This document shows, in pieces, positions 10,054 through 25,616 of a stretch of 64,000 nt of DNA. Under the pieces are notes generated by a model. It did not search any database. It was not told the origin of the DNA and saw nothing but the letters and a program-made list of their open reading frames with translations. The position numbers and the translations under genes were made by a program. Each line of letters starts with the position of its first letter. Position 1 is the stretch's first letter. Source of the DNA: Escherichia phage ECO319P1; the sequence record OP172790. One strand, given 5' to 3'.

Positions 10054-10110
10054 GTAATATCTTCGGAGTCGCTCAATGAGCGGCTTCTATAGGTGTTTCT
10101 TGGAGGTCAT

Positions 10111-10892: not shown

Positions 10893-11154
10893 TGTGGGGC
10901 AGCGGTCGCAGGGCTAACAGCATGTCCAAAGGGCGTGTTGGGCATACTTCGATTCGCAGACCCTCAACTGGTACTGAAACCCCGTTCGGACAACTCCGGG
11001 CGGGTGACTTCTTTACCCACAACGGGCGTCTGTTCTTAAAGACCAACCTGATTGATGCTGTTGAAGTCCCTGACGGGTCTGACGCAATGATAGGGACTAA
11101 TCAGTTCTCTGAAGAGTTCTTAGTTCAGGTTGAAAATGTGGTAATCCACATCCA

Positions 11155-11180
11155 ATAATTATTGCACATTATTATAAGGA
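11155..11180 (+). promoter_or_regulatory. phage promoter element (TAATTATTGCACATTATTATAAGGAG)
   Basis: one of five copies of the conserved element; directly upstream of a gene. Confidence 0.5.
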
Positions 11181-11187
11181 GTATCTC

Positions 11188-11283
11188 ATGCAACTTCCTA
11201 CTGGATTCATAGTGCTCCTTGTTATCTTGTATACACTGAATGCACTGCAACAAGAAGGATATCTTTCATGGCTCTCATTCTGA
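11188..11283 (+). CDS. small hydrophobic leader peptide (31 aa)
   Basis: strong AAGGAG RBS straight after the promoter element; overlaps the start of the following TerD-family gene. Confidence 0.3.
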   Translation: MQLPTGFIVLLVILYTLNALQQEGYLSWLSF

Positions 11284-11927
11284 AGAAGAACCAATCCACT
11301 GACCTCGTATCTGATAAAGGTACTCCGGTTCTGAACCTCACTGTTGGTGCTAATTGGGGTATGATTAGCAAAACTGGTGATAGCAAAGCGGCTGGCTTCT
11401 TCAACCGTATGGCATCTGCTCTGGGTGCTGGAGATACAGTGAAAACCGCTGTTGACCTTGACCTGTCAATGGTCTTCGCTAACGCCAAAGGCGAACTGGT
11501 AGACATGTGCTACTACGGCAATAAGCGTCTGTTCAGTGGTGCAGTTCTGCACTCTGGTGACGACCTCGTTGGTGACGACGAGCAGAACGAAGATGATAAC
11601 GAACTGATTAAGTTCGAAGGCATGAAGGTTCCGTTCGATGTTACCACTGTGTACGTTGTACTGAACTCCTTCCGCCATCAGATGTTCGATGAAATCCCAT
11701 ACATCGGCATCTCTTTCTACGAAGGTCTGGTGAACAAGGGCTCCAAAGGTCTGCGATTCGCTGAGGCTCGTGTTGAGAAAGAGAAAGAAGCTGCTGGCAA
11801 AGAGTGCTGCATCCTCGCTAAGATTGTCCGTACTGGCAAAGGCTGGAACGTGACTCCGCTGTTCGACTACACCTCGGACACCAATCTGCGCGACCTTGCT
11901 CGCACTGCAATTCGTAAGCACGGCTAA
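11268..11927 (+). CDS. TerD-family paralog
   Basis: VDLDLS and HSGDDLVGDDE motifs. Confidence 0.65.
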   Translation: MALILKKNQSTDLVSDKGTPVLNLTVGANWGMISKTGDSKAAGFFNRMASALGAGDTVKTAVDLDLSMVFANAKGELVDMCYYGNKRLFSGAVLHSGDDLVGDDEQNEDDNELIKFEGMKVPFDVTTVYVVLNSFRHQMFDEIPYIGISFYEGLVNKGSKGLRFAEARVEKEKEAAGKECCILAKIVRTGKGWNVTPLFDYTSDTNLRDLARTAIRKHG

Positions 11928-11986
11928 TCGTGCCAAGCCCACTTTAGGATAGAGGTGGGCAACAACTATAAGGAGAGTAATCCCCG

Positions 11987-12412
11987 ATGAGTTGGTTTAT
12001 GTGCTGGTTAGCACTAACTCTTAACATTTACACGGAGGCAGGTGGAGAGGGTGAGCAAGGTATGAGGATGATTGCTGATGTAGCGGTCACTCGTACTACG
12101 CACAAAGATTACCCAGATAACATTAGCAAAGTTATTCTTCAACCGGGTCAATTTTCTTGGACTTATAACTTAAAGTCGAGGTCTGAGAAAGGATTAGTTG
12201 CTTATAATAAGCGTCTCTTAAAGTCTAAGAGAATGACTAATCCAAAAGAAAGAGAAGCATATGCCATAGCGATGAAAGTCGCGTACAGAGCTTTACAGCC
12301 GGGGTATAAACCCAAGTACAGGTATACTCACTTCTACAGTGGGACAGACAAGCCCAAGTGGGCTAAAAACAAACGTGCCGTCAAACACGGCAACCATTAC
12401 TTTATCAAATAA
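11987..12412 (+). CDS. SleB-like cell wall hydrolase
   Basis: NIYTEAGGEGEQG...VAVTRTTH...QPGQFSW pattern of the Hydrolase_2 family; no signal peptide. Confidence 0.55.
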   Translation: MSWFMCWLALTLNIYTEAGGEGEQGMRMIADVAVTRTTHKDYPDNISKVILQPGQFSWTYNLKSRSEKGLVAYNKRLLKSKRMTNPKEREAYAIAMKVAYRALQPGYKPKYRYTHFYSGTDKPKWAKNKRAVKHGNHYFIK

Positions 12413-12421
12413 GGATTCACA

Positions 12422-12634
12422 ATGTTCTCCTCCAACAAACCAACCTTCTCCTCGGCAATGAAGATGTTCACCAAAGCTCAGGAAGAACTGAAAGCTGCTG
12501 GTGAAGTGAATGCTGCCGAACTGGCAGAAGCCGAAGCCGCTGTAGCTGCTGCGAAAGAAGAACGTGATAACATCAATCGCGTTACCTCTTTCTTCGACAA
12601 CCTGCTGGGTAAAGGCCCGGAGTTGACTAAGTAA
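12422..12634 (+). CDS. hypothetical Ala-rich small protein
   Basis: 70 aa ORF. Confidence 0.4.
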   Translation: MFSSNKPTFSSAMKMFTKAQEELKAAGEVNAAELAEAEAAVAAAKEERDNINRVTSFFDNLLGKGPELTK

Positions 12635-13182
12635 TGCGTAAAGTTGCAATCATTGGAGCCTGTATCGGCTCCTTGTTCCTTCTGAGTGGTTGTGATGATA
12701 ACACTTCCAAGCTGACCGCTGACCAACAGTTCCAACTGAAACAGATGGAAATGCAGCAAGCTGAGAAGATGCGCAACCAACGTCATGAGTTGGAAATGGC
12801 TCGTGCCATGAATCCTGCTCCTGTTATTCAATCTGAGACTCGCTATGTTGAGTCAGAGCCACAGGTGATTTACCGCGATGTTCCAGCACAACCTGCACCT
12901 CAACCCCATTCTGTCAGCCCTGATAGCTATGGGTACAGTAGCAGCAATAGTGATTCTGGGAGCGGTATTGGCTCACACGTCGCAACGGCAGCCGTAGGTG
13001 CTGCTGCTGGCTATTATGCTGGCAAGTACACCTCAACGCCGAAAGGCCAGCAACAAGTACAGACGATGAAGTCTAAGACTAAATCAATGTACGACACTGG
13101 TAAGAAGAAAGCCTACACAGGCTATCGCTTTACCAAAAGCAAAACAACCTCAGCGTATCGCTCATTCAAGAAACGAAAGTAA
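12634..13182 (+). CDS. lipoprotein with Gly/Ala-zipper segment
   Basis: lipobox LLSGC; Pro-rich linker; basic C-terminus. Confidence 0.5.
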   Translation: MRKVAIIGACIGSLFLLSGCDDNTSKLTADQQFQLKQMEMQQAEKMRNQRHELEMARAMNPAPVIQSETRYVESEPQVIYRDVPAQPAPQPHSVSPDSYGYSSSNSDSGSGIGSHVATAAVGAAAGYYAGKYTSTPKGQQQVQTMKSKTKSMYDTGKKKAYTGYRFTKSKTTSAYRSFKKRK

Positions 13183-13194
13183 CGGAGATTCAAC

Positions 13195-13563
13195 ATGAAC
13201 CTGATTGAAGTACTGAAAGACCAACTGGATAAAGAAGGCGCGATTCTGGACAACGCAAAGCGTGACGATAAAAACGTTCGTGCTGCGATTCAAGTCTCGA
13301 AAGAGATTCGTAAAGTGCTGGCTGAAAACATTCGCGGCATCAAAGCGCAGATTAAAGAGTCTGACCGTGCATCGAATGGTGCTAAGTCAAGCCTGCTGCG
13401 TCGCTCTCTGGCGTTCTTCCGTGAACAGTACAACGACCTGTTCGAAGAAATCTACATGCTTCGTGCTCAGAAGGGCATGATTACTTCCTATCTGAAAACT
13501 CAGACGGAACTGGTTGTGTCGCTGGATGCCGAATGGGAGAAAGCGAAACGTGAAGCTCAGTAA
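13195..13563 (+). CDS. hypothetical coiled-coil protein
   Basis: 122 aa charged helical ORF. Confidence 0.45.
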   Translation: MNLIEVLKDQLDKEGAILDNAKRDDKNVRAAIQVSKEIRKVLAENIRGIKAQIKESDRASNGAKSSLLRRSLAFFREQYNDLFEEIYMLRAQKGMITSYLKTQTELVVSLDAEWEKAKREAQ

Positions 13564-13798
13564 GTTCAACATCTTTAAGTTGTGCTTTGTAGCTGTGTTG
13601 GCGGCCTTAATGGCTGCCTTCTTCTACTTCCGTGGCATCGACTTCAAAGACTGTCTCATGGCGAAGTATGACCTTCAGCGTGAAACAACCTTCCGCATCC
13701 TGACTGGTGCTTGCACTACGAAGGGCAAAGACGGAAGTCTGATTTATGTTAAGCAACTTCGTGGCTTCGGCGATGATGTTGTTGACGACCATCAATAA
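13526..13798 (+). CDS. small membrane protein
   Basis: TM segment LCFVAVLAALMAAFFYF; start uncertain (TTG 13514, ATG 13526 or GTG 13550). Confidence 0.3.
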   Translation: MPNGRKRNVKLSKFNIFKLCFVAVLAALMAAFFYFRGIDFKDCLMAKYDLQRETTFRILTGACTTKGKDGSLIYVKQLRGFGDDVVDDHQ

Positions 13799-13808: not shown

Positions 13809-14681
13809 ATGGTTTGGGCAGTTATTGAAAACCACAAAGGCCAACGGGAAGATTTCCGTAAGCCGTGCTTTGGTTTCATGTCCTACATTCATCAGTGGTA
13901 CGAAACTGACGAGTGGGACGACGAAGAGGACGATTGGGAATACGAATACCTTGAAGGTTTCGAACCCGCCGAACTCAACCTCATGCACTACTTCCCTGAT
14001 TTCCGCAACCATATGCCGAGTCAGGATTTGCCTGAGTTCCGTGAGAAGTATCTGCCTGTGCTGTTGGAAGCTGTGAAGCTTCTGCCTCAGTATTACTCGA
14101 ACGTTGAGTACACTGCTCCAACTGATAGCACTCAGGAGACGTTTACGTTCGCCCTGCAAGATGCGAACATGCAAACGACAATCATCGGTGCTATGATGCT
14201 GCGTAACATTGCTCAGTATTCTGGTATGCGTCGCGTGTTCCGTCTTTGCGTTGACGCTGGCCTTGACCCTGTAACCTGCTTCGTTATGGGTAACATGTAC
14301 AGCAGCAACTACTGCTCGTTTGGTGCTGATGCTGGTAAGTATCTGGCAAACCCTGTTCACTACGGTGACGAGTCAATCTTCCCAGATGAAACTCGCGCTT
14401 GTGATATCCAGGCGTTCATTGACGGTAAGCTCGGTCACATCTACCAAGGTGTGTGGGGCGATACTGAAAATGGTTATGGTCGTTATGGTGAGTATGACGG
14501 TGATACCGCACCTCGCTTTGAACGTACCGGTAATCGTTCAACCATCACTGACACTCTGCTGTTGGCTGATGATTACGTTGACTCACCATTGCTGATGGAT
14601 ATCGAAATCGGTGTTTGTTCATCGGCTCGCTTCAGTGATGAAGAGTTGATTGTTCTTGCTGGTAAAATTACTGGTAAATAA
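13809..14681 (+). CDS. hypothetical protein with acidic N-terminal tract (part of ligase cluster)
   Basis: 290 aa ORF; contains 12-mer copy 5. Confidence 0.5.
   Translation: MVWAVIENHKGQREDFRKPCFGFMSYIHQWYETDEWDDEEDDWEYEYLEGFEPAELNLMHYFPDFRNHMPSQDLPEFREKYLPVLLEAVKLLPQYYSNVEYTAPTDSTQETFTFALQDANMQTTIIGAMMLRNIAQYSGMRRVFRLCVDAGLDPVTCFVMGNMYSSNYCSFGADAGKYLANPVHYGDESIFPDETRACDIQAFIDGKLGHIYQGVWGDTENGYGRYGEYDGDTAPRFERTGNRSTITDTLLLADDYVDSPLLMDIEIGVCSSARFSDEELIVLAGKITGK
14359..14370 (+). repeat. copy 5 of 12-mer ACTACGGTGACG
   Basis: exact match, read as H-Y-G-D. Confidence 0.9.
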
Positions 14682-14692
14682 AGGATAAAACA

Positions 14693-15637
14693 ATGTCAGT
14701 AAAATTCGACGTAGTTTACAAGGATGGATTCAAATTGAAAATGACCTCAATTTGTTTCGGTGTAATGGAGAAGGGGCGCTGGAATGAAATCAACGGGTAT
14801 CGCAATATGCCCGCTGAGAATCATCAGGATGCAGACCAGCGCTTCATTCAGTTCTACACCAACGCTTACATTCACCCGATGTGGGCGTATGAAGAAGGTA
14901 TTAAGCGCGATTGGCCTCGTGGTGAAGATAACCAAGAAGGTCGAAACAAAGCTTCGAAGAACTTCATCAATGAGATGAAAGAACTTCAGAAAGACATGCC
15001 GTTCCTGCAAGGGCTTGTCACCTTCCATCCATTGTTACACGTTGCCCGTGTGCATATCAAAAATCACACGGTTGACCAGATTATGCTGGCATTGTTTTTG
15101 GTACGTAACATGTGCCATTACAGCAACAACTGTTTCACTTACCGCTGGTTACGTGAGACATACAACATGCGTCCAATGCTGGCGGCAGTAATGTGCCATC
15201 AGTTCTCAATGGACTTAGGCTCGTTCGGGCGTCATTCGTTCTCTCCAGCATGTCTGGGTGAGTACAACTGGATTAACCCCCAGACGTTCGGTAAAGAGTC
15301 GTTGCTTCGTTTCATGACCCATACGAAAGAAACAGAATTCGAATATCGTCAGGGCATGTGGAAGGACAGTAAAGGTTATCGTCGTGACGACCACTTTGCT
15401 CGTAACGATGTTATCTTCGACAGCGAAATCGGCGGCTCGAACAAATACTGGAAGATGGTAGCACCATTCAGTATTCCGGGCGACGAAGCGATTAATGCCA
15501 ATCAATGTAAAGACCGTTATAGCGGTATGGTGATTGGTCGCAGTTGGAACCACGAACTGAGCCAAGGTGAAGTAGAGAACTACATCAGTGGTGTTCTCGA
15601 ACTTCTGGCAGAAAACAATATCCCAGCAACTCTCTAA
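14693..15637 (+). CDS. hypothetical protein (part of ligase cluster)
   Basis: 314 aa ORF with RBS; no recognisable motif. Confidence 0.5.
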   Translation: MSVKFDVVYKDGFKLKMTSICFGVMEKGRWNEINGYRNMPAENHQDADQRFIQFYTNAYIHPMWAYEEGIKRDWPRGEDNQEGRNKASKNFINEMKELQKDMPFLQGLVTFHPLLHVARVHIKNHTVDQIMLALFLVRNMCHYSNNCFTYRWLRETYNMRPMLAAVMCHQFSMDLGSFGRHSFSPACLGEYNWINPQTFGKESLLRFMTHTKETEFEYRQGMWKDSKGYRRDDHFARNDVIFDSEIGGSNKYWKMVAPFSIPGDEAINANQCKDRYSGMVIGRSWNHELSQGEVENYISGVLELLAENNIPATL

Positions 15638-15649
15638 GGTAATAAAGAC

Positions 15650-16447
15650 ATGCGTAAGATTTACTTAGGTTCAGACCCAGAGCTGTTTACTCGTGATGCA
15701 AACGGCCTCGTATCATCTGTAGCTGGTAAGCTCGGTGCTGATAAGTATCACAAACGCCATGTCACGGACGACATTCGCATTCAGGAAGATAACGTGCTGG
15801 TTGAATTTGATATCAACCCGCATGGCACATTTGCAGGGTTCAACGATAACATGATGCGTGGTATCGCTGCCTGTAATGACGCTGCGAAATCTGTCGGTCA
15901 CGAAGTTGACCTGACTATCTGCTCTCACGTTTTCAGCGATGCAGAGCTTCGTACTTTCCACAAAGACGCATTCGTGTTTGGCTGTGAGCCAGACTTCAAT
16001 GCCCTGACTGGTTCTCGTAATGCGAAACCGGCTGCTGCGGATGTAGGTCTGCGTACTGCCGGTGGTCATATTCATATCGGTTATAACGAAGACCGCAACG
16101 TTGACTCTGAATCTCAGAAGATTCTGGGTGTAATGTGTGATTACTTCCTCGGTATGCCAGCTATCCTTCTGGATGGTGACGACCGTCGTAAAGAACTGTA
16201 TGGTAAAGCTGGAGCTTGCCGCTTCAAAACCTACGGTATCGAGTATCGTGTTCTGTCCAACTTCTGGACTCTGGACGATAAGATGCGTCTGTGGGCTTGG
16301 GAACAGGCTCATAAAGCATACGACTTCACTGTTGGTGATGCAATGGTGTTGGCGTCAATTGTTGACCCGGAAGAAATTCAGCGTGTCATTAATAACAATG
16401 ACAAGGCAATGGCTGAACATTACATCAAGCTGCTGGAGATTATGTAA
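15650..16447 (+). CDS. predicted COOH-NH2 ligase (GCS2-like, phage type)
   Basis: N-terminal GSDPELF and central GGHIHIGY resemble the phage COOH-NH2 ligase type 2 family as I recall it; not verified by search. Confidence 0.5.
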   Translation: MRKIYLGSDPELFTRDANGLVSSVAGKLGADKYHKRHVTDDIRIQEDNVLVEFDINPHGTFAGFNDNMMRGIAACNDAAKSVGHEVDLTICSHVFSDAELRTFHKDAFVFGCEPDFNALTGSRNAKPAAADVGLRTAGGHIHIGYNEDRNVDSESQKILGVMCDYFLGMPAILLDGDDRRKELYGKAGACRFKTYGIEYRVLSNFWTLDDKMRLWAWEQAHKAYDFTVGDAMVLASIVDPEEIQRVINNNDKAMAEHYIKLLEIM

Positions 16448-17025
16448 TGGCTTTACACGATGATTTTGCAATGTACTATAATGGTACATATGTTGGTTAT
16501 CGTAAAGATGGGGATGTAGTCCCCTTCTACATCGAAGCGGTTGATACTGACCGCTCAATCTTTGATTACTCAGAAGCGTCTGAGTCAGAGATGTTCGGTG
16601 ACCAAGCGCTGAGTGCGTTGACCTTCTACGGAAGTATCGACGGCAACCGTGCAACGATTAACCACGACGACCCGAATCTGGTTCTTGAAATGCCAGATAG
16701 TAAGTACATCCAGTTCCGTGGACGTTACTATTGGGTTCAATGGCGAGCGAACCGTTCCACTAAGAAGGGAATGGGTCAGCGTCGTCTCTCAGGCATTCCG
16801 CAATTCAACCATGAAGTCGCTCGTGCGATGTTCTCGGAGCGGTCTGCACCAAACGTAATCGCAGGATGCTTGTTACGTCAGAATAATGAACTTCACTACA
16901 AGGGTGTGGTGGTCGGTTCAATCAATGGCAACGAAGTTGTGTTGGTTTCCGAAGCTGCTCACCTGTTACGTTTTGTATCACGGGAGATGCAGGAATGCCA
17001 AGTTTCGGTAGCACAAGCGGGCTAA
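16447..17025 (+). CDS. hypothetical protein (part of ligase cluster)
   Basis: 192 aa ORF; overlaps the next gene by 31 nt. Confidence 0.4.
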   Translation: MALHDDFAMYYNGTYVGYRKDGDVVPFYIEAVDTDRSIFDYSEASESEMFGDQALSALTFYGSIDGNRATINHDDPNLVLEMPDSKYIQFRGRYYWVQWRANRSTKKGMGQRRLSGIPQFNHEVARAMFSERSAPNVIAGCLLRQNNELHYKGVVVGSINGNEVVLVSEAAHLLRFVSREMQECQVSVAQAG

Positions 17026-18506
17026 GTGAGTCGTCATTAGCAACCCTCCGCGAAGCGGGGGTGATTGACTCAGAAGGTAACTGGTTAACTGGTAACATGC
17101 CTTCACCTTTTGGTGGAGGTTTGGTTGGTTATAACACTGCTGATGTTATTCCTGACACACCACCACCAAGACCAGCACGGACAAGACACGATGGGCGACC
17201 ATTGCGTTCAAGTTCGTATGCCGACATGTTCGGTGGTCTTCGTGCTCAGCCGGTTGCTATGGATGAAATGCCTGAGACTTCAGGTGATTATTATATTTCT
17301 GGTAATGTAGAGGCCGATTCAGAAATGCAAACTATTGCGCAAATTGTTGGGCACCGTGCAACTTATCCAACTCTTGAGAAGCATCCGCTGATTGTAGGTA
17401 CAAATTTGGCAGGTGTTGAGATTGAGTTGGAGGGCATCACTGCTCGTGCTCCACGTTTCAACTACTGGACAGCAAAAGGTGATGGCTCTCTCCGTAACCG
17501 TGGGATGGAATTTGTTTGTTCATCTCCGTGGGGTGGTCGTGACCTGTACAATGCAGCCATTGAAATTGATGGTTGGTTGTTCACTGCTCAGCCAGAAGAT
17601 ACTTGGCGTTGTTCTACTCACGTACACATTGATGTTCGTGATATGACTGTGCCGCAGTTGAAGCGAATGATTCTGGCATATGCAGTTTACGAACGTATTC
17701 TGTTCAAATGCTCAGGCTTCCATCGTTACAAGAATAACTTCTGTGTAGCGTTGGGCTTCGCTCAGGAGTTGGTAACAACTCTGTCTAATGCGTGGGCACT
17801 TCCTGATAACCAGTTCATCAGTCGTTTGACTGGAAATTGGGATAAGTATTCCAGCATCAACATGCTTCCGATTCAGCAGTTCGGCTCTGTCGAATTCCGT
17901 ATCAGTGAAGCGAAGTGGCGCAAAGGTCGTCTGATTCGTTTGGTTAACCGCTTCCTGTCTCTGAAAGAGATTGCGATGCAGCCATTCGAGGGTTCAGAGT
18001 CTGAATTCATTCAGATGCTGGTCAATACCCCGATTAGCAAAATCATTCGTAAAGGTCTGCCGAAGGTTCTTCCAGATGCAGAGATGGATATCGAGATTGG
18101 TTATAAACTGGCTCACGATATCATTAGCATGGCGGCCTTGCGTCGCCTGTCTATCCGCCCTCTGGTTCCGAATCTGTCAGATGATTCACGACAGTTTAAC
18201 GTTGAAATCTTCGAGCCGGGTTATGAGCATATTATGACTCGTATCAACCGCTCAGATAATAACGTTGAGTTGCCTCGTGAAGCCCCTGCAACTATCAACT
18301 TTAGTTGGTGGTATGAAGTTGAGAATCTGATGCTTCAGATGGGTCATACCTACGAGCGCAGTTGGTTCACAGCATCAAGCAACAACCGTCAGATTCACTC
18401 ACTGTTCGAAGAGTATTGTCGTGAACGTCGTGCTGAGCGTCGTCGTCAGGATGAAATCGTTGAACGTGAAGATGATGAAGACGATACCTCTCCAGAGTTC
18501 TGGTAA
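16995..18506 (+). CDS. predicted amidoligase (glutamine-synthetase-like)
   Basis: GVEIELEG...RNRGMEFV...STHVHIDV pattern; 503 aa. Confidence 0.6.
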   Translation: MPSFGSTSGLSESSLATLREAGVIDSEGNWLTGNMPSPFGGGLVGYNTADVIPDTPPPRPARTRHDGRPLRSSSYADMFGGLRAQPVAMDEMPETSGDYYISGNVEADSEMQTIAQIVGHRATYPTLEKHPLIVGTNLAGVEIELEGITARAPRFNYWTAKGDGSLRNRGMEFVCSSPWGGRDLYNAAIEIDGWLFTAQPEDTWRCSTHVHIDVRDMTVPQLKRMILAYAVYERILFKCSGFHRYKNNFCVALGFAQELVTTLSNAWALPDNQFISRLTGNWDKYSSINMLPIQQFGSVEFRISEAKWRKGRLIRLVNRFLSLKEIAMQPFEGSESEFIQMLVNTPISKIIRKGLPKVLPDAEMDIEIGYKLAHDIISMAALRRLSIRPLVPNLSDDSRQFNVEIFEPGYEHIMTRINRSDNNVELPREAPATINFSWWYEVENLMLQMGHTYERSWFTASSNNRQIHSLFEEYCRERRAERRRQDEIVEREDDEDDTSPEFW

Positions 18507-18565
18507 GAATAAATGTGGGGTGTAAAAGCCCCAACTTCAATGTAAATAGATGAAAGGATTTTTGT

Positions 18566-20536
18566 ATGTGTGGGATTGTTCTCGCTGGTGGTAACTTAAT
18601 CGCTCGTGATGTTGAACTGTTCGGTCGTCTACTGTATGCAGATATCGTTCGTGGTGAGCATTCAACGGGTGTGTTCGCAGGGTTTCGTCCTTTTGGTCAT
18701 GACCCAATCCTGAAACTTCGTAAAGCCGCTGTTCCGGCAGATATCTTCTTACGCCGCAAAGAGTTATGGGGTGAAGTGCGTGAACACGCAGTTCCTTCAA
18801 AGACTGTTGCAAATTCTTTCACAACTGCCTATCCGAAATTTATGGTAGGCCACAACCGTTATGCAACTCAGGGTGCAATTAACGATACGAACGCTCACCC
18901 GTTCAACCACGGTAAAATCACTCTGGTTCACAATGGTACATTGACTGACCAGTCTCTGCTCCCAGACCATAAGAACTTCGCTGTTGACAGTGAAAACGTC
19001 GCATGGTCAATCAACAAAATCGGTATTGATGAAACTATTCAGAAATTGAATGGTGCATTCACTCTGGTTTGGCATAACGCCGAAGACAGCACGGTGAACA
19101 TCATCCGTAACGAAGAACGTCCATTCCATCTGGTTGAAACAACTGGTGGTGATTGGTTCGGTGCTTCGGAAGAAGACATGCTTCTGTGGTTAATTAACCG
19201 CAAGAAGTTTGCTCCAACAATCAAACGTCACTTTGAATGTGAAGTAGGTGTTCAGTACGTCTTTGACGTATCCGAAGGCTTCAAGTTCAAGGAGGAACGG
19301 AAGCATACGCTTCCAACCTTTCGCTCATATTCCTACACTGGAAGAACTGGTGGTTATTGGTATGACCAGTGGGATGATGACTATGGGTACGGAAACGGAC
19401 GAGGAACTTCAACAACTTCTCGCAACCAATCCAATAGCCAGAGCTTTAGCTCAAGCTCTTCTAGCGTAACACCGGACAGCCGTTACAAGCAGTTCAATGA
19501 TATGCTGGAAAGCCACGGCATCAACGTCAAAATGGGTGAGCAACTCCGCTTCGAGAGCTTCCAGTTTGACCAGTATCCTAAGTCTCTGGGCAAGGGTAAA
19601 ATGACCGGGTATACTGGCACTGGCGAGTATATTGAGGTTCAGGCTCACGGCACTGATATGGGCATCTTTGTTGAAGGTGCTGAGTACGATGGTAAGATTA
19701 TCTCGTGCTATGAGCAGAATTACATTCTGACAATTATCGTTCAAGACCCAAAACCTGCTCATGTTAATCAGACACTGACCCTCGGTGATTTGGTTAACTC
19801 GGCGGCAAAGGAAACTCCAATTCCTGATACAGGGATTAGTCAGGAAGAGTTGAACGAAGAGTACTACGGTGACGAGGAAGAAGACGACGGCAACGAAGTC
19901 GAAGTAACCTTGAACGGTGAGGTGTACTCAAAAAAGGAATGGGAGGGAAACGACTCATTAAATACTTGCGCAAACTGTTCCTCTCCAATCCCCTTCGACG
20001 ACGTGATTGATACGGTTGTCGATAATGGCGCTGCATTCTGCCATGATTGCGCAAAGCATTACAACCTGTTACCCCCTGAGACGGAGGAGCCAATTGCTCC
20101 TAACCGTTTCGTCTGCCAAAGCTGTGCCAACGAATTGCCGGAAGATTTAGAATCGGCAAAGCCGGGTGTCTGCATTCCTTGTCTTTGCGCTGTAACTAAA
20201 GACAACAATACGGAAATGGCACGTCAACAGTTAATCGAAAAGTACGACCGTTGGGAATCCAATTTGATGCCAGAGGAAGTGGTCACTCCACTGCTTCCGA
20301 AACCAACTGAAGTCTCTCTCGGTGAAATTTCACTGATTCGCAAGAAGTTGAAAAACAACTTGCTGGTTACTGTTAAGCAGTGGATGAAGATGAACAACTG
20401 TGGTTGGTGTCAAAAGCCAATCCAGTGGGTTGATGCTGAAGCCACTGAATTTGTTGGTCAGCAGCCATGCTGTCCGGGATGCTCCAAGAAATTAGAGATG
20501 GGCATCCTTCCAAAACCTATCAATAAGGATAAATGA
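18566..20536 (+). CDS. class II glutamine amidotransferase (Ntn) domain fused to Ser-rich linker and three C-terminal zinc ribbons
   Basis: MCGI N-terminal nucleophile, GHNRYATQG, VHNGTL; CxxC pairs in the C-terminal 200 aa; contains 12-mer copy 6. Confidence 0.7.
   Translation: MCGIVLAGGNLIARDVELFGRLLYADIVRGEHSTGVFAGFRPFGHDPILKLRKAAVPADIFLRRKELWGEVREHAVPSKTVANSFTTAYPKFMVGHNRYATQGAINDTNAHPFNHGKITLVHNGTLTDQSLLPDHKNFAVDSENVAWSINKIGIDETIQKLNGAFTLVWHNAEDSTVNIIRNEERPFHLVETTGGDWFGASEEDMLLWLINRKKFAPTIKRHFECEVGVQYVFDVSEGFKFKEERKHTLPTFRSYSYTGRTGGYWYDQWDDDYGYGNGRGTSTTSRNQSNSQSFSSSSSSVTPDSRYKQFNDMLESHGINVKMGEQLRFESFQFDQYPKSLGKGKMTGYTGTGEYIEVQAHGTDMGIFVEGAEYDGKIISCYEQNYILTIIVQDPKPAHVNQTLTLGDLVNSAAKETPIPDTGISQEELNEEYYGDEEEDDGNEVEVTLNGEVYSKKEWEGNDSLNTCANCSSPIPFDDVIDTVVDNGAAFCHDCAKHYNLLPPETEEPIAPNRFVCQSCANELPEDLESAKPGVCIPCLCAVTKDNNTEMARQQLIEKYDRWESNLMPEEVVTPLLPKPTEVSLGEISLIRKKLKNNLLVTVKQWMKMNNCGWCQKPIQWVDAEATEFVGQQPCCPGCSKKLEMGILPKPINKDK
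19863..19874 (+). repeat. copy 6 of 12-mer ACTACGGTGACG
   Basis: exact match, read as Y-Y-G-D. Confidence 0.9.
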
Positions 20537-20537
20537 T

Positions 20538-20771
20538 ATGGATAATTCAATGAGTGAAGTGAAGGTTTTGCGTCTGGATTCACCTGTGGTGGTTCGAAAA
20601 GTTCCAATGACTGACTTCGGTAGTGATATGCTCCGAGCCATTCGTCGCTTCCAAACTGAGGCGTATGAACGTGCAAAAGGTCAGAAGGTGGAAATCCCTT
20701 ATCCTGTGTGTATTCACATGATGATGTCGGATTACTGCAAGCTGAAAGGCATCCAAGTAACCAATGGCTGA
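20538..20771 (+). CDS. hypothetical protein
   Basis: 77 aa ORF. Confidence 0.4.
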   Translation: MDNSMSEVKVLRLDSPVVVRKVPMTDFGSDMLRAIRRFQTEAYERAKGQKVEIPYPVCIHMMMSDYCKLKGIQVTNG

Positions 20772-20976
20772 TAAAGATGTCGAAAAGGCTCGCAAGGAAA
20801 GCGAGTCTTGGCACAACCGTCAGATTGGAAACTTGTTAGAAGAAGAGTGGGAGTACGCAAAACAAATGGGTACTCAGGAGGGCCAAGAGGCCATCTGGTA
20901 TCTCACTCTTTCTTATGAAACACTGGAAGCAGAAATCATGGAACACAAACGTGATATCCGTGAACTTCATCTTTGA
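20764..20976 (+). CDS. hypothetical protein
   Basis: 70 aa ORF. Confidence 0.4.
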   Translation: MADKDVEKARKESESWHNRQIGNLLEEEWEYAKQMGTQEGQEAIWYLTLSYETLEAEIMEHKRDIRELHL

Positions 20977-21046
20977 GTGAGTTATTTATAGGGTGTCGGT
21001 GAAGCGCCCTATGTGAAATTCATTCTCAACTAAAAGGTACTTATCA

Positions 21047-22246
21047 ATGGCACGTTTAGCAATCTACTCCCACGCTCCTTCTGATTCTGTTAATGCACTT
21101 AAAGCGCACTTATCAGTGGAAGGCGTTGACCTGATTAAAATCAAGCGTCAGAACAGCCGCTTCGCTGGTCGTGAAGGCGATGTAATCATTAACTATGGTT
21201 CATCCTCTTTCCCAATGGAACGTGTTGGTCGTGGTCGTCTGCTGAACAATCCGGGAGCAATCTCTCTGGCTTCTAACAAACTTCGTGCATTCGAGGTGTT
21301 CCAGAACGCTGGGGTTAAGACTGTAGAGTGGACTAATCAACACTCAATCGCTCAAGGTTGGGTAGAACAAGGTGGTATGGTTTATGCAAGAACAACGCTT
21401 CAAGGACATTCTGGTGCCGGTATCGTTATTGGCTACGGAAATCCTGCCGGAGTGGGAGATGCGGGCGACGTACAGGTTACTAGCACCCTTCCTCGCGCAC
21501 AACTGTACACCAAAGCAATCCTGCAAGAACGTCGAGAGTTCCGAATCCATGTAATGGATGGTAAGATTACTTACGTTCAGCAGAAACGTCGTCGTGATGG
21601 TTTCCGTGAGAATGAAACCTACAGCAATCTGGTTCGTAACCACCACACTGGTTGGATTTATGCAACTCAGAACGCTGATGTGTGTGACGAAGCGAAGCGC
21701 GAAGCAATCAAAGCAATCGAAGCTTTAGGTCTGGACTTCGGTGCAGTAGATGTAATCACACGCCGTGGTGAAGCATGGGTTCTCGAAGTCAACACTGCTC
21801 CGGGCATGTCTGGCACTAACCTCGAAACTTATGCAAACAACTTCACTCGCCTGATGAACGGTGAACCCGTTGAAGGTGTAGTGGTTGATATGTCTATCCC
21901 TGTGGAGACGAACAATGATAACCGCAACACCCGTAATGAACGCCAGTCTGGCAATCGCAATACACAACCTCAACCAGAACAACCTCAACCAGAACAACCG
22001 ACGCCAACCCCTGTCGCTACCCCAGCGCCAACAGCACCAGCCGAAGCGCCGGTTTCCTCAGCGACAACCCGCAACACCAATGGTACTGCATTAATTGATA
22101 ACGGTGTTTACAAACTGTTGGTTGATGGTAATGCCACTGTTGGTAAATTCGTTCAAGATTGTGCCCACTTCGAAATTCTTGGCTGGGAGGTTCCGGTCGA
22201 GCATGAAGATGCAACTATTGGGGAACTCCTGTGCACTTTGAACTAA
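21047..22246 (+). CDS. ATP-grasp ligase (RimK/glutathione-synthetase-like) with Pro/Glu-rich linker and extra C-terminal domain
   Basis: GAVDVITRRGEAWVLEVNTAPGMSG ATP-grasp core; QPQPEQPQPEQPTPTP linker. Confidence 0.65.
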   Translation: MARLAIYSHAPSDSVNALKAHLSVEGVDLIKIKRQNSRFAGREGDVIINYGSSSFPMERVGRGRLLNNPGAISLASNKLRAFEVFQNAGVKTVEWTNQHSIAQGWVEQGGMVYARTTLQGHSGAGIVIGYGNPAGVGDAGDVQVTSTLPRAQLYTKAILQERREFRIHVMDGKITYVQQKRRRDGFRENETYSNLVRNHHTGWIYATQNADVCDEAKREAIKAIEALGLDFGAVDVITRRGEAWVLEVNTAPGMSGTNLETYANNFTRLMNGEPVEGVVVDMSIPVETNNDNRNTRNERQSGNRNTQPQPEQPQPEQPTPTPVATPAPTAPAEAPVSSATTRNTNGTALIDNGVYKLLVDGNATVGKFVQDCAHFEILGWEVPVEHEDATIGELLCTLN

Positions 22247-22476
22247 GTAATGGTGACAGTGTAGAACTGCGGGGAAACTCACAGGCTGCACGTTTCATCT
22301 ACTTGGCTATGCCCTTCCAAGGACTCCAGTTTGCGGAGGGGCAAGAGAAGCCAAGAATTACAATGACCCCAGAGGTCAAGGCAATCATCCGGTTGTCTGA
22401 AAAGTTTCGTGCTCGCTTAATTGAGCGGGCTTTGAAAGTCGAGGACTTGTTCCAAGACGAAGACATTCCCTTTTAA
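22231..22476 (+). CDS. hypothetical protein
   Basis: 81 aa ORF. Confidence 0.35.
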   Translation: MHFELSNGDSVELRGNSQAARFIYLAMPFQGLQFAEGQEKPRITMTPEVKAIIRLSEKFRARLIERALKVEDLFQDEDIPF

Positions 22477-22484
22477 GGTGTGAA

Positions 22485-23018
22485 ATGGAAACTGCACATA
22501 GTTTAATTCATAATGGATTCTTAAAAGTACATTCAACAACTGTTGATGGTAAAACTTATGAGTATCTGGAAAGCAAGCCGACTGTCTCTACGCTTCTTGT
22601 GGAACAACAAGGGAACCCTCTGGATGATATCCTCACCATTGGTGTTCAACATCGTATTGGTGCATCTGCTGGGGAGTTGAAAGAAAATGCTATCTACACA
22701 CTCGCCTCTGGTTACGTTGATGGTAATGAGACCACAACTGATGCTGCGCATCGTGAAGCCGAGGAAGAATTTGGGGCACGGGGTCATGTTTTTAAATTGG
22801 GAGCAGGATATAACTCGCCTGGAATCTCAACTCAAATTACGGAAATGTTCTGGATGAATGTCCAAGAATGGCATGAGCCGATTGACCCCGGCGAAGGTGT
22901 GAAGCCTATCAAGTTAACTCTTGGTCAGGTTCTGCACATGGTTAAATCCCCGTTCACAGTGCTCAGTATGCCACTGACGAACACAATCCTGCTTTATGCT
23001 GCAATGCGTGGTGTCTAA
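22485..23018 (+). CDS. Nudix hydrolase (ADP-ribose pyrophosphatase-like)
   Basis: Nudix box GYVDGNETTTDAAHREAEEEFGA. Confidence 0.7.
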   Translation: METAHSLIHNGFLKVHSTTVDGKTYEYLESKPTVSTLLVEQQGNPLDDILTIGVQHRIGASAGELKENAIYTLASGYVDGNETTTDAAHREAEEEFGARGHVFKLGAGYNSPGISTQITEMFWMNVQEWHEPIDPGEGVKPIKLTLGQVLHMVKSPFTVLSMPLTNTILLYAAMRGV

Positions 23019-23245
23019 TGTCTGAACAATACCGCCCGAAACTGATGGTAATGGGTGTTCCACACCGTGTTACCTATACCAACTACAAAGGTGAAACTCG
23101 GGAACGAACCATAATCCCGATTAACATGTGGTTTGGTCACACTGACTTCCATAAAGAAGACCAGTGGTTACTCCGCGCACTTGACAAAGAGAAAGGTCAA
23201 GTACGTGATTTCGCCCTTAACGATATGACTCCCAACTGGAAATAA
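23018..23245 (+). CDS. hypothetical protein
   Basis: 75 aa ORF. Confidence 0.35.
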   Translation: MSEQYRPKLMVMGVPHRVTYTNYKGETRERTIIPINMWFGHTDFHKEDQWLLRALDKEKGQVRDFALNDMTPNWK

Positions 23246-23249
23246 TCAA

Positions 23250-23435
23250 ATGAAAATTCAAGTTACGCTGTGCTCTGGTATTAAACATGAAGCTGATGCT
23301 GATAATATTACTACTGACCCTTCTTGGGTTGTTCTTTCCAAGAAGATTGAAAAGCGTGATACGATTGTTGCCGTATTCCCGGCACACACTGTTGTTGAAG
23401 TTGTTAATAAAACTCATGTTAAGGAAGTGAAATAA
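23250..23435 (+). CDS. hypothetical protein
   Basis: 61 aa ORF. Confidence 0.3.
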   Translation: MKIQVTLCSGIKHEADADNITTDPSWVVLSKKIEKRDTIVAVFPAHTVVEVVNKTHVKEVK

Positions 23436-23947
23436 TGTTGAAACTGATTCCTGCTCGTGGTGGTGTTCGTCATACTTTTGCAAACGGTAGCATCATTAAA
23501 ATTAAACGTGGTGCTGCTCTGACTGGTGAAATCCGAATCGAGTCAGCGCCTCGTGGTAATCGTGCTGTCCTGTACAGCCCAACTGGCGATATCATTCGCT
23601 CTCGTGAGAACACCTTCGCTCTGACCTCTCACAACATCCGTAGCCAGTTCTGGAGCGAGACTTATGGTTGTGCTCTGCATCTGGTTGTACCGGAGCCAAC
23701 TGTTGCTCCTGCTGTCTCTCAGGAACCTGTTGATGATAAGACCAAAGTCATTGACGAGTTCGATGTTGATGGTAAATACATCGTCTGGTGTCCGGGTTCT
23801 GAACTGCCACCTCGCGTAGTTCTGGAAGGTCGTAAACAAGCGAAAGCTGTTGCGATTAGCATGGCTCAACGCCACGGAAAAGAATTCCATTGGTGTCGCC
23901 TGATGGGTTCCGCTAAACCAGTGACCACTATTACTGTAACGGAGTAA
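23435..23947 (+). CDS. hypothetical protein
   Basis: 170 aa ORF. Confidence 0.45.
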   Translation: MLKLIPARGGVRHTFANGSIIKIKRGAALTGEIRIESAPRGNRAVLYSPTGDIIRSRENTFALTSHNIRSQFWSETYGCALHLVVPEPTVAPAVSQEPVDDKTKVIDEFDVDGKYIVWCPGSELPPRVVLEGRKQAKAVAISMAQRHGKEFHWCRLMGSAKPVTTITVTE

Positions 23948-23952
23948 CAGAC

Positions 23953-24918
23953 TTGAAATTCGAGAAATTCCAATCTCTCGTAAATGAGTCTATGAAGAAC
24001 GTTGGAGGTTTCCTTCGGGATTCCTCCTTCGGGAAACGTAAGGCCATTGTTACCGAGAAAATCCACGGTGCTAACTTCTCTGTCTACTTCGGTTGTAAAG
24101 ACAATGTGGTTGGTATCAACTTCGCTTCTCGTTCTCAGATGCTGTGCCCTGAAACTAACTTCATGAATTGCCAACGCTACTTCACTGAAGAAAAGATTCA
24201 GGAATTGCTGGAACATGCTTCCACAATCATGGCTCTGGACAAATGTGAACTTCGTATCATCGGTGAAATTTACGGTGGCATGGATATCGCTGGAATCAAA
24301 CCCGTTCAGCGAGAAGTCCACTACTCCGGTGATATTGGCTTCCGTGTGTTCCATGCACAAATTGCCAACAACGAAACTGGTGAAGTCTTTGACTACAACT
24401 GGAAGAATGTGAAAGCTCTTGCCAAAGATTTTGGCTTTGAGGTCGCACCAATTGTGGCTGAAGGTCTGACCTTTGAACAGGCTTATGCACTTGACCAGAA
24501 GGTTAAGTCTGCTCTGTCTGACAAAGACCAGATTTGTGAAGGTTACTGTATCCGCGTTGATGCAGATGAAGAAGGTCAAGCACCTTTAATCTTCAAGAAG
24601 CGTAATACTGAGTTCCTTGAAACCAAGGGCACTGTGAAGGCTCCTCAGAATACTGTAGAGCAGACGCAACTCGGTATGGAAGCAATGGCACGTATTGGTG
24701 CATTCATCACACCACAGCGTGTTTCTAACGTCAATAGCCACCACGGTTTCGATAGTCCAAAAGACTTCCAGAAACTGATGGAAGCTGTACTTGATGATGT
24801 GCTCAATGAGTACAAAGCCGAGTATGACGTAGACCTTCGCAATGAGTTGGTCTGGAAAGAAATTAAGCGTTCAGTTGGAGCACAGGTAGTGCCGCTGGTA
24901 CGTGAAGTTCTGCTGTAA
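23953..24918 (+). CDS. RNA ligase-like nucleotidyltransferase (Rnl2-type)
   Basis: motif I lysine in TEKIHGANF; TTG start after GGAG RBS. Confidence 0.6.
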   Translation: MKFEKFQSLVNESMKNVGGFLRDSSFGKRKAIVTEKIHGANFSVYFGCKDNVVGINFASRSQMLCPETNFMNCQRYFTEEKIQELLEHASTIMALDKCELRIIGEIYGGMDIAGIKPVQREVHYSGDIGFRVFHAQIANNETGEVFDYNWKNVKALAKDFGFEVAPIVAEGLTFEQAYALDQKVKSALSDKDQICEGYCIRVDADEEGQAPLIFKKRNTEFLETKGTVKAPQNTVEQTQLGMEAMARIGAFITPQRVSNVNSHHGFDSPKDFQKLMEAVLDDVLNEYKAEYDVDLRNELVWKEIKRSVGAQVVPLVREVLL

Positions 24919-24944
24919 TTATTGCACATTAATATAGGTTAAGG
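24916..24944 (+). promoter_or_regulatory. phage promoter element (TAATTATTGCACATTAATATAGG)
   Basis: conserved element copy. Confidence 0.5.
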
Positions 24945-24952
24945 ATAATCTT

Positions 24953-25561: not shown

Positions 25562-25569
25562 TTTGCAAG

Positions 25570-25600
25570 AAGGCTTCTACGGGAGCCTTGTTTCGAATTT
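25570..25600 (+). terminator. candidate intrinsic terminator
   Basis: stem AAGGCT/AGCCTT with 8-nt loop followed by GTTTCGAATTT. Confidence 0.4.
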
Positions 25601-25616
25601 GTAAAAGGAAAACAGA

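Follow-up and report, generated by a model that had tools for sequence, protein, structure and literature searches.

What do the clustered amide-bond enzymes at positions 13809-22246 of Escherichia phage ECO319P1 (record OP172790; a stretch of 64,000 nucleotides, referred to here as the window) make, and do they belong to a known system? A sequence-only reading had described the locus as an eight-gene cluster of a kind predicted by comparative genomics to build peptide tags or peptide-derived metabolites. All plus-strand open reading frames (ORFs) on which that reading was built were present, coordinates included, in the ORF listing of the window, and the window is completely syntenic with Cronobacter phage GAP52, at 85% nucleotide identity. 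Judged by its sequence, the block is a real copy of the phiEco32/LUZ24-type amidoligase cassette, which encodes three ligases that form amide bonds at the expense of ATP, along with enzymes acting on gamma-glutamyl groups. The cassette is already known and named in the literature, and the ECO319P1 copy is a further member. According to later papers (PMC5498523, PMC4819975, PMC6256558, PMC11945000), it was described computationally in Iyer 2009 (Mol Biosyst) and Hardies 2013 (J Virol), and it also goes by the names 'gamma-glutamyl amide / unusual peptide bond operon' and 'peptidoglycan modification cassette'. The earlier appeal to comparative genomics matches a named system, and in the literature searched, no experiment on the product or target of the cassette was found, as had been supposed.

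The block contains nine genes (A to I, in order) rather than eight, because positions 20538-20976 hold two ORFs and not one: 20538-20771 (77 aa) and 20764-20976 (70 aa) are in different frames and overlap by 8 nt (ATGGCTGA), and two genes are annotated at this position in GAP52. The cassette also extends past 22246, where it had been taken to end, since a gamma-glutamyl cyclotransferase gene (R) is found at 26040-26474. In LUZ24 and its relatives, the cyclotransferase gene lies directly 3' of the ATP-grasp gene; by family match and gene order, R belongs to the cassette and is displaced in ECO319P1 by an insertion at 22231-25973. The inserted plus-strand block of ~3.5 kb, by which ECO319P1 differs from LUZ24-type cassettes, contains small ORFs, a Nudix gene (22485-23018, plus strand; Pfam NUDIX), an Rnl2-type RNA ligase gene (23953-24918, plus strand; Pfam RNA_ligase, T4_Rnl2_C), and others. 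Genes of this block recur in just 1-6 of 87 cassette loci, and it is probably outside the cassette proper. On the upstream side, the earlier statement that the cluster immediately follows the NAD+ and Ter genes is only approximate, as an endolysin gene and several small ORFs (11987-13798) lie in between. The layout of the cassette, all of whose genes are on the plus strand, is operon-like, with tight or overlapping intergenic gaps. Promoter-like and terminator-like sites in the block showed no excess over the shuffled expectation, and ten proteins tested against PADLOC models of anti-phage defence gave zero matches.

The four enzyme assignments made earlier (COOH-NH2 ligase, amidoligase, class II glutamine amidotransferase (GATase), and RimK-like ATP-grasp enzyme) held up in Pfam, PHROG, and PDB matches, and all five enzymes, R included, keep their catalytic residues and look active. 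Pfam scores of C, E, and I barely exceed the cut-offs. Core gene C (15650-16447, 265 aa) encodes a COOH-NH2 ligase of the phiEco32 type (GCS2/glutamine-synthetase-like), matching Pfam PF14395, whose family name refers to phage phiEco32, with 27.3 bits (cut-off 25) and PHROG 3815 with an E value of 3e-106; 40+ residues are invariant among 81 sequences. The second core ligase gene, E (16995-18506), encodes a glutamine-synthetase-like amidoligase (Amidoligase_2, Pfam PF12224, 23.6 bits against a cut-off of 22; PHROGs 38711 and 7469, the latter with an E value of 1.5e-115). The first ~100 amino acids of E are a lineage-specific low-complexity extension, followed by residues E142, E144, D163, E172, H209, H211, E300, and R302, invariant in 81 sequences. 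Both C and E retain their Glu/His/Arg sets in the alignments. Between them lies core gene D (16447-17025, 192 aa), whose start overlaps the C stop and whose 3' end overlaps the E start. It is near-universal in cassette loci (78/87) and was found on phage-sized contigs only. The D protein, a non-enzymatic subunit, was confidently modelled as small SH3/Tudor-like beta-barrels and therefore looks like an adaptor; barrels of this kind typically bind peptides or proteins.

Gene F (18566-20536) encodes a class II (Ntn) GATase domain (aa 1-~240; GATase_6, 51.7 bits), after which come a linker, a middle region rich in beta structure, and three zinc-ribbon-like modules (CxxC...CxxC), whose Cys pairs are kept in 13-17 of 19 long forms. 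Residues C2, R98, N123-G124, and D141 are conserved in the alignment, and from the motifs we take them to be the counterparts of GlmS Cys1, Arg73, Asn98-Gly99, and Asp123; a local alignment matches F 94-132 with GlmS 69-107. Past residue ~205, G348 is the sole conserved position. Membership in an ordinary biosynthesis family, for example that of true asparagine synthetases, was checked: Pfam and NCBIfam revealed no SIS, PRTase, or Asn synthase domain in F, i.e., no acceptor/synthase domain. Matches to NCBIfam glmS, purF, and EgtC were far under the cut-offs and confined to the GATase domain (EgtC: E 0.006, 16 bits, cut-off 219). For F, the product name in RefSeq, 'L-glutamine-D-fructose-6-phosphate aminotransferase', has no justification, because the protein lacks both a synthase domain and, G348 apart, conserved residues beyond about aa 205. 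Its domain content marks F as a predicted glutaminase or gamma-glutamyl hydrolase and not as a ligase; the cluster of amide-bond enzymes is real, but F is not one of those that form such bonds.

Of the two small genes that follow, G (20538-20771) encodes a 77-aa protein of DUF7195 (Pfam PF23825, E 7e-37; 25 loci) with a beta-alpha-alpha sequence pattern that appears ribbon-helix-helix-like. No conserved C-terminus was found among 20 distinct G sequences, which vary in length as well. The key element of a peptide-tag system is therefore missing, G with its variable C-terminus being the only small conserved protein. The adjoining gene H (20764-20976; gp035 in the GAP52 annotation) encodes an acidic, helical protein of 70 aa, whose position is kept while its sequence is not; ORFs of 68-84 aa occur there in Kuravirus and Proteus phage loci.

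Core gene I (21047-22246) encodes a RimK-like ATP-grasp ligase (aa 1-~280; Pfam RimK, 27.5 bits), to which a linker rich in PQPEQ and a further small domain at the C-terminus are joined. The closest solved relative is RimK (PDB 5zct/4iwx, E 1e-5), and MptN, rimK_fam, and CofF are the best NCBIfam matches, all under the cut-off; with 35.2 bits against 143.4, the curated threshold of TIGR00768 rimK_fam is missed. Residues K78, E164, K180, D235, E247, and N249 are invariant in 74 sequences, so that the Lys of the ATP-grasp fold and the metal-binding Asp, Glu, and Asn are kept. Gene I thus shares the fold and the conserved ATP and metal ligands of the RimK family, but differs from it in its far sub-threshold scores and in the extra proline-rich linker and C-terminal domain. 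These matches place I closest to RimK, MptN, and CofF, alpha-L-glutamate ligases whose substrates end in glutamate. The RefSeq name of I, 'ribosomal protein S6 glutaminyl transferase', is based on homology only. Gene R matches the AIG2/GGACT-like gamma-glutamyl cyclotransferases (Pfam GGACT, E 2e-17; 32 loci), and its YGSL motif and catalytic Glu, E91, are present in 28/28 sequences.

Upstream of the core are genes A (13809-14681, 290 aa; PHROG 24882, E 4e-140) and B (14693-15637, 314 aa), which encode distant paralogues (BLASTP E 2e-5; hhalign probability 97%). Invariant in the A family are a Cys in a CFG motif, an Arg, a Gln, and a Gly-x-x-Arg, and in B, residues C21, G23, R138, Q220, G228, and R231. 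The confident model of B is without a structural relative, and no known fold was found for either protein. Thus, of the four proteins earlier said to be of no recognisable family, A and B do lack a known fold, though they are related to each other, while the 77-aa protein belongs to DUF7195 and the 16447-17025 product is a core subunit. A and B are lineage-specific accessory proteins, A being present in 15 of 87 loci. Their slot is filled by a class I GATase/peptidase C26-like hydrolase in 56 other loci and by gp14/gp15 in LUZ24; no class I GATase-like protein was found in the ECO319P1 window. The lineage is further set apart from other phiEco32/LUZ24-type cassettes by its long GATase with three zinc ribbons.

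The cassette was found in hundreds of bacterial viruses. Among 87 loci, C was present in 87, E in 86, F in 81, D in 78, and I in 78, and the order of the core (COOH-NH2 ligase, 192-aa protein, Amidoligase_2, class II GATase, RimK-like ATP-grasp) was nearly fixed. D and E were adjacent in 74/76 loci, C and D in 65/75, and E and F in 68/81. The same genes in near-identical order recur in 80+ divergent viral contigs, so their linkage, on which the sequence-only reading had staked its case, is extremely strong in related phages and far beyond chance. The ECO319P1 cassette has the five enzyme families of other phiEco32/LUZ24-type cassettes in the same order (ligase, small protein, Amidoligase_2, GATase, small protein, ATP-grasp, cyclotransferase), matching LUZ24 gp14-gp22 and NJ01; in CW02, the crAss-like phage cr108_1, and O4, the same core enzyme genes are partly rearranged. 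Relatives of C were found in 312 phage records and numbered 515 in IMG/VR, whereas 100,044 species genomes yielded 18 loci, almost all of them on short phage-like contigs. The cassette is a tailed-phage module, almost confined to viral sequence in the data surveyed. Some contigs carrying it are binned with archaea and Patescibacteria; the binning is unconvincing and carries little weight for or against the peptidoglycan reading discussed below.

In ECO319P1, as in other phiEco32/LUZ24-type phages, the cassette sits in the early region, upstream of the primase/helicase gene. A primase or primase/helicase gene was at most four genes away in 35 of the 35 loci that show one, and in cr108_1, the cassette is flanked by primase and UDG/exonuclease/RNR genes. 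The SU10 homologues of I, F, and R have been detected by mass spectrometry and listed among early products. The cassette is probably expressed early in infection.

Several known pathways use a gamma-glutamyl 'handle' that a GS/GCL-like or ATP-grasp ligase adds and a GATase-like hydrolase or GGCT removes. In ergothioneine synthesis, the EgtA ligase is paired with the class II GATase-like hydrolase EgtC; in butirosin synthesis, the ATP-grasp enzyme BtrJ is paired with the cyclotransferase BtrG; and in Puu/Pau polyamine gamma-glutamylation, the GS-like PuuA is paired with the C26 hydrolase PuuD. The cassette resembles these pathways in this logic, but is not a member of any of them at the sequence level, is without tailoring enzymes, carrier protein, or transporter, and has the phage-only barrel subunit D, which they do not. 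Pupylation (PafA/Dop/Pup) is similar in that a member of the carboxylate-amine ligase superfamily is paired with an amide-cleaving enzyme, but the cassette has no small tag with a conserved C-terminal ligation residue, the G C-terminus being variable. A LysW/amino-group carrier pathway, with a Zn-ribbon carrier whose acidic C-terminal acceptor is conserved beside a LysX-like ATP-grasp gene, was not matched either, the small Zn-ribbon proteins near the cassette in 40 loci having unconserved acidic tails; in ECO319P1, such a gene (36392-36559) is ~14 kb from the ATP-grasp gene. The cassette thus encodes no conserved tag or carrier. Nor was a match to MurT/GatD-type amidation found: Pfam and NCBIfam showed no Mur ligase domain in the cassette proteins, and the window holds no class I GATase-like protein.

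The most likely mechanism, which we hold with about even confidence, is that the cassette encodes a multi-enzyme cytoplasmic system that forms L-gamma-glutamyl amide bonds and also takes them apart; its chemical steps are all deduced from family membership at low sequence identity. Assuming that the proteins reside in the host cytoplasm, C and E would use ATP to convert a carboxylate to an acyl-phosphate and then join it to an amine; the analogy with GCL, GS, and PuuA makes the gamma-carboxyl of L-glutamate the likeliest carboxylate. D may hold C and E together in a complex, as suggested by the adjacency of the three genes, which is nearly always kept and in ECO319P1 extends to overlapping ends. 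Because F has the full GlmS/PurF glutamine-binding and catalytic set and no acceptor domain, it would either supply ammonia to its neighbour E or hydrolyse gamma-glutamyl amides as EgtC does; the former would be unprecedented, since to our knowledge no class II GATase donates ammonia in trans. I would add an alpha-linked amino acid, probably glutamate, onto the terminal glutamyl carboxylate, and R would strip off, as 5-oxoproline, a gamma-glutamyl group whose alpha-amine is free. Together these steps would yield a short amide or peptide that contains gamma-glutamyl, assembled on an amine-bearing substrate and then partly removed.

In a rough division of the whole among substrate classes, a free small molecule or short peptide is favoured, though at somewhat less than even likelihood; a protein is a less probable candidate, a peptidoglycan precursor is unlikely, and a nucleic acid or nucleotide, like any other substrate, is improbable. 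The universal adaptor D and the three zinc ribbons of F count against a free metabolite and point to a macromolecular target. Such a target could be a host or phage protein that receives glutamate or a short peptide, by RimK-type polyglutamylation or as a pupylation-like gamma-glutamyl-lysine, with D and the F zinc ribbons for targeting and F, R, and perhaps A/B as erasers. We regard this explanation as a possible one, with the odds clearly against it. RimK, the closest solved relative of I, has a protein substrate, the barrels of D are of a peptide- and protein-binding type, the three zinc ribbons of F are conserved, the invariant Cys of A/B could serve as a hydrolase nucleophile, and PafA/Dop, which have a carboxylate-amine ligase fold and act on proteins, provide a precedent. 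It is weakened by the lack of a conserved tag (G combines a variable C-terminus with a DNA-binding-like sequence pattern, and the acidic tails of the small Zn-ribbon proteins are unconserved, the ECO319P1 copy being distant as well), by the size of C (265 aa), which is far smaller than PafA, and by the need of R for a gamma-glutamyl group with a free alpha-amino group.

In a peptidoglycan reading, which later papers trace to Iyer 2009 and Hardies 2013, the ligases would add or amidate stem-peptide residues of cytoplasmic murein precursors, and the altered wall would keep other phages from superinfecting. The naming of the cassette in the literature follows this reading, and gamma-glutamyl links in stem peptides, glutamine-dependent amidation in some bacteria, and the E-F gene pair, which would suit a glutamine-dependent amidoligase, all fit it. 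The enzymes that carry out this amidation are MurT/GatD and AsnB1/LtsA. In the cassette, however, neither a Mur-ligase fold nor a recognisable enzyme for D-amino acids is present. Cyclotransferases such as R, and likewise the F pocket (R98, D141), require L-gamma-glutamyl groups whose alpha-amine and alpha-carboxylate are both free, a condition that the D-isoglutamate of murein does not satisfy. The module is still termed 'putative' in a 2025 paper, and we find the peptidoglycan reading rather improbable. The proximity of primase genes and the cr108_1 neighbourhood speak for a third alternative, the attachment of an amino-acid-derived group to a nucleotide, DNA, or RNA within the replication module. 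Nucleic-acid binding would also be conceivable for the zinc ribbons of F and for G, with its possible ribbon-helix-helix pattern. Yet no hydroxymethylase, kinase, glycosylase, or transglycosylase was present among the recurrent neighbours (representatives of the four largest families), and a spot before the replication genes is the ordinary place of early/middle genes in these podoviruses; this alternative is the least probable of the three.

A bolder reading, which we consider doubtful, is that of a virus-exclusive machine that places a gamma-glutamyl or oligo-glutamyl mark on macromolecules and takes it off again; the marked molecule could be, for example, a host protein of translation or transcription or the end of a nucleic acid. 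D would be a new targeting adaptor made of small beta-barrels, the zinc-ribbon tail of F a second targeting module, and A/B a previously unseen cysteine-dependent amidohydrolase fold in the place that a class I GATase-like hydrolase takes in other lineages.

All plus-strand open reading frames that the sequence-only reading had listed for the block at 13809-22246 are present at the positions it gave them, with the exception of 20538-20976, which consists of two ORFs in different frames, G (20538-20771, 77 aa) and H (20764-20976, 70 aa). These ORFs share 8 nt, ATGGCTGA. Because of this split, the block has nine genes rather than the eight originally counted. Pfam matches bear out the four enzyme types that had been proposed: gene product C (15650-16447) matches COOH-NH2_lig, “Phage phiEco32-like COOH.NH2 ligase-type 2” (27.3 bits, cut-off 25), E (16995-18506) matches Amidoligase_2 (23.6 bits, cut-off 22), F (18566-20536, 656 aa) matches GATase_6 over the first ~240 residues (51.7 bits), and I (21047-22246) matches RimK ATP-grasp (27.5 bits). 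Four further proteins had been described as having no recognisable family. The description stands for the paralogues A (13809-14681) and B (14693-15637), which are without a known fold, but not for the 77-aa part of 20538-20976, since G is Pfam DUF7195 (E 7e-37). Strong PHROG matches were obtained for all nine block proteins but the 70-aa H. Internal promoters and terminators were not enriched in the block compared with shuffles.

Across 98% of its length, the window shares 85% identity with phage A24 and with Cronobacter phage GAP52 (Crifsvirus, Grimontviridae), and the block is syntenic, gene for gene, with GAP52 gp028-gp036. All testable membership features of the phiEco32/LUZ24-type amidoligase cassette were found in the block, which is a new, ~85%-identical (to GAP52) copy of this computationally described cassette, with a footprint of 8-9 kb within a ~76 kb genome. 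The LUZ24 version (gp14-gp22) encodes two ~320-aa proteins, a COOH-NH2 ligase, a 189-aa protein, an amidoligase, a GATase and a 73-aa protein, followed by a RimK-like ATP-grasp enzyme, a cyclotransferase and then primase/helicase; Kuravirus NJ01 has the same gene order. The core enzyme genes are partly rearranged in Salinivibrio phage CW02, crAss-like cr108_1 and Pseudomonas phage O4, with the GATase gene before or immediately after that of the COOH-NH2 ligase. In the Bacteroidota-associated cr108_1 (6694-13750), the genes code for an ATP-grasp enzyme, two ~300-aa proteins without assignment, a class I GATase-like protein, the ligase, the GATase and a long amidoligase; this cassette is without a D-like protein and is flanked by primase and UDG/exonuclease/RNR genes.

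A seven-gene “peptidoglycan modification cassette” has been described as common to phiEco32, 7-11, PA11, tf, LUZ24, PaP3 and CW02 (PMC5498523), was proposed to be a module that modifies host peptidoglycan (PMC6256558), and was still termed “putative” in 2025 (PMC11945000). Its source papers (Iyer 2009; Hardies 2013) are represented here through the papers that cite them. In Kuravirus SU10, homologues of the ATP-grasp enzyme, the GATase and the cyclotransferase were seen by mass spectrometry and classed as early gene products (PMC4281155). The literature found on the cassette consists of genomic descriptions, with no experimental product, target or phenotype more than 15 years after the first prediction. 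The sequence-only reading knew of no experimentally defined product of a phage version, and the full-text literature found on the cassette agrees with it.

A tblastn search with C matched 312 phage records, including 121 of Pseudomonas and 93 of Escherichia phages, with other matches in Vibrio, Aeromonas, Proteus and Salmonella phages and one crAss-like phage; LUZ24-like Pseudomonas phages, Kuravirus coliphages and the crAss-like gut phage are among the deposited genomes. A profile scan of IMG/VR with the ligase returned 515 relatives, 80 of which were taken with their flanks for locus comparison. Gene counts in 87 loci come from iterative HMM searches that started from the proteins of the window, and they are minima, because many contigs are incomplete. 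By construction, C is present in 87/87 loci. The amidoligase E is found in 86, the GATase F in 81, the 192-aa D (16447-17025) and the ATP-grasp enzyme I in 78 each, the gamma-glutamyl cyclotransferase R in 32, the DUF7195 protein G in 25, and A/B in 15. Gene order is nearly invariant (D-E adjacent in 74/76 loci, C-D in 65/75, E-F in 68/81), and a primase gene lies at most four genes from the cassette in 35/35 loci where one is visible. Linkage in related phages therefore holds, by co-occurrence as well as by order, and the true core consists of the cyclotransferase together with C, D, E, F and I.

In this sampling, viral sequence accounts for essentially all copies of the cassette. A profile scan of one genome per species (100,044 species) yielded 18 loci, nearly all of which look like binned phage, because they are short MAG contigs carrying the same cassette and a primase gene. 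The sole match on a large cellular contig was found at ~9200-10600 of a 546-kb contig from a Bacteriovoracaceae MAG. There, a COOH-NH2-ligase-like gene adjoins a homologue of a ~245-aa family that lies just 3' of the ATP-grasp gene in 20 viral loci, and the remaining cassette is absent; the locus may be either a remnant or a cellular relative.

The slot 5' of C holds one of three alternatives, and no locus among the 87 has two kinds, a count inflated by the shared ancestry of the loci. A class I GATase/peptidase C26-like protein, with a GVCRGAQ nucleophile elbow and a GHPE motif in a representative sequence, occupies the slot in 56 loci, A/B in 15 and LUZ24 gp14/gp15-type proteins in nine, while seven loci have none of these. 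Since the alternatives never co-occur, A/B is suggested to be equivalent in function to the class I GATase-like hydrolase. Homology of A/B to LUZ24 gp14/gp15 was considered but not supported (hhalign probability at most 14%; BFVD Foldseek E 1.9, non-significant). This alternation was not found described in the literature on the cassette, and the variable slot offers natural material for comparison.

The enzymes of the cassette look active, judging from their conserved catalytic residues. E and C keep the Glu/His/Arg sets expected for the glutamine-synthetase fold, in I the ATP-grasp lysines are conserved together with the Asp/Glu/Asn metal ligands, and 28/28 sequences of R (26040-26474, AIG2/GGACT type) have both YGSL and the catalytic glutamate. 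The best PDB match of I is RimK (E 1e-5), and its best NCBIfam matches are the alpha-L-glutamate ligases MptN, rimK_fam and CofF, all far below cut-offs. F keeps Cys2, Arg98, Asn123-Gly124 and Asp141 in motifs GHNRYATQG, LVHNG and VDSE; by our reading of these motifs the residues would correspond to GlmS Cys1, Arg73, Asn98-Gly99 and Asp123, which bind and hydrolyse free glutamine, and a local alignment pairs F 94-132 with GlmS 69-107. Pfam and NCBIfam searches found no SIS, PRTase or asparagine-synthase domain in F, so it is not placed in an ordinary asparagine-synthetase family. Beyond residue ~205, family-wide conservation is limited to Gly348, and in long forms of F, including the window copy, three CxxC...CxxC pairs are kept in 13-17 of 19 sequences. 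With no acceptor domain and no family-wide C-terminal conservation, the RefSeq name “L-glutamine-D-fructose-6-phosphate aminotransferase” is unjustified. Two enzymes carry lineage-specific segments: a ~100-aa Pro/Ser/Gly-rich low-complexity N-terminus of E (16995-17300), whose coding sequence overlaps that of D by 31 nt, and a PQPEQ-repeat linker before the small C-terminal domain of I (21900-22100).

The near-universal D looks like an adaptor rather than an enzyme. Neither its sequence nor its profile matched solved structures, and a search for D fused within long Amidoligase_2 forms in loci without D gave no signal. G has a beta-alpha-alpha sequence pattern resembling ribbon-helix-helix. It ends in ...TNG, but was excluded as a Gly-terminal, Ubiquitin/Pup-like tag because its C-terminus is unconserved. 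H is small and acidic, conserved in position and unconserved in sequence. A 55-aa Zn-ribbon protein (CxxC...CxxC; 36392-36559) is one of a family of small proteins whose acidic tails vary. Genes of this family lie within a few genes of the cassette in 40 loci, most of them uncultured viral contigs and some of them marine phages. A role as a LysW-like carrier was rejected: the tails differ between members, and ~14 kb separate the window copy from the cassette ATP-grasp gene.

Gene content, conservation of catalytic residues, gene order and viral restriction are directly established, as is protein expression in a relative. The well-studied relatives of all five enzyme families (GCL, GS, PuuA, GshB, RimK, MptN, CofF, GlmS, PurF, EgtC and GGCT) have as substrates L-glutamate, glutamine or an L-gamma-glutamyl group with free alpha-amine and alpha-carboxylate. 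Gamma-glutamate serves as a temporary handle in the ergothioneine (EgtA/EgtC), butirosin (BtrJ/BtrG) and polyamine (PuuA/PuuD) pathways, whose mix of writers and erasers is the same as that of the cassette. Because of this chemistry and this mix, we favour, by analogy, a complex that would make and remove gamma-glutamyl bonds. C, D, E and possibly F would form the complex and work with I and R in the cytoplasm, early in infection, on a substrate bearing an amine, at which gamma-glutamyl amide bonds would be added, extended and removed. The glutamine-synthetase-fold ligases C and E and the ATP-grasp ligase I could together form as many as three amide bonds, while F may be a source of ammonia for E or else a hydrolase of a gamma-glutamyl amide.

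What such a complex would act on can be narrowed. The cassette is not RimK sensu stricto, GlmS/PurF/AsnB, pupylation, the LysW pathway or MurT/GatD, since at least one defining feature of each was tested and not found. PADLOC defence models matched no cassette protein. A small molecule or short peptide is a serious candidate, at somewhat below even chances, but the universal adaptor D and the zinc ribbons on F speak against a small molecule alone. These two features leave room for a protein substrate, which we nevertheless consider doubtful: the unconserved C-terminus of G and the unconserved Zn-ribbon tails removed the tag and carrier-protein models, and no conserved tag or carrier is present among the cassette-linked small proteins. 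A virus-only writer/eraser of a macromolecular gamma-glutamyl mark, in which both the adaptor and a cysteine-hydrolase fold would be new, seems unlikely.

A murein precursor, the substrate implied by the name under which the cassette is known, is less probable still. The cassette has no Mur-ligase and no D-amino-acid enzyme, and acylated D-isoglutamate fits poorly with the requirements of R and of the F glutamine pocket; the cassette contig binned with Halobacteriales (32% GC, not clearly halophilic) says little for or against this model. For a nucleic acid or nucleotide the proximity of primase might be invoked, but this is the usual early-gene location in these phages, and no base-modifying partner was seen among recurrent neighbour families, with representatives of the four largest inspected, which makes this class very improbable; any other class has an equally slim chance. 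A virus-specific set, with three ligases and as many as three enzymes that cleave gamma-glutamyl groups, is kept across very distant podovirus lineages, and this retention implies that the cassette gives a strong, general selective advantage during infection. The cassette is a genuine, long-standing and widely distributed problem in phage biology, the answer to which would enrich phage-host biology with a new metabolite made by phages or else with a new modification, either post-translational or of the cell envelope.

In the window, a ~3.5 kb insertion (22231-25973) keeps the ATP-grasp and cyclotransferase genes apart; besides Nudix and an Rnl2-type RNA ligase it contains several small ORFs. 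The insertion genes were found again in just 1-6 of the 87 loci, and in LUZ24 the ATP-grasp and cyclotransferase genes are neighbours without an intervening block. Upstream of the block, a Nampt/NAPRTase-like gene directly follows one resembling ribose-phosphate pyrophosphokinase (Pribosyltran, Pribosyl_synth), the two spanning 6380-8932. This pair may be a counterpart of Adps and Namat of the phage NAD+ reconstitution pathway NARP1; this two-enzyme pathway, reported in 2024, is said to counter NAD+-depleting defences. This lytic phage also carries TerC (9127-10053) and two TerD paralogues within 9127-11927, with a SleB-type endolysin gene (11987-12412) just 3' of them. The Ter genes lie outside the cassette, because they are missing from the cassette-flanking LUZ24 and Kuravirus regions examined. 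Further downstream, GC skew changes sign at ~46000-50000, with a cumulative maximum near 48 kb, which would fit a coding-strand switch between two convergent gene arms.
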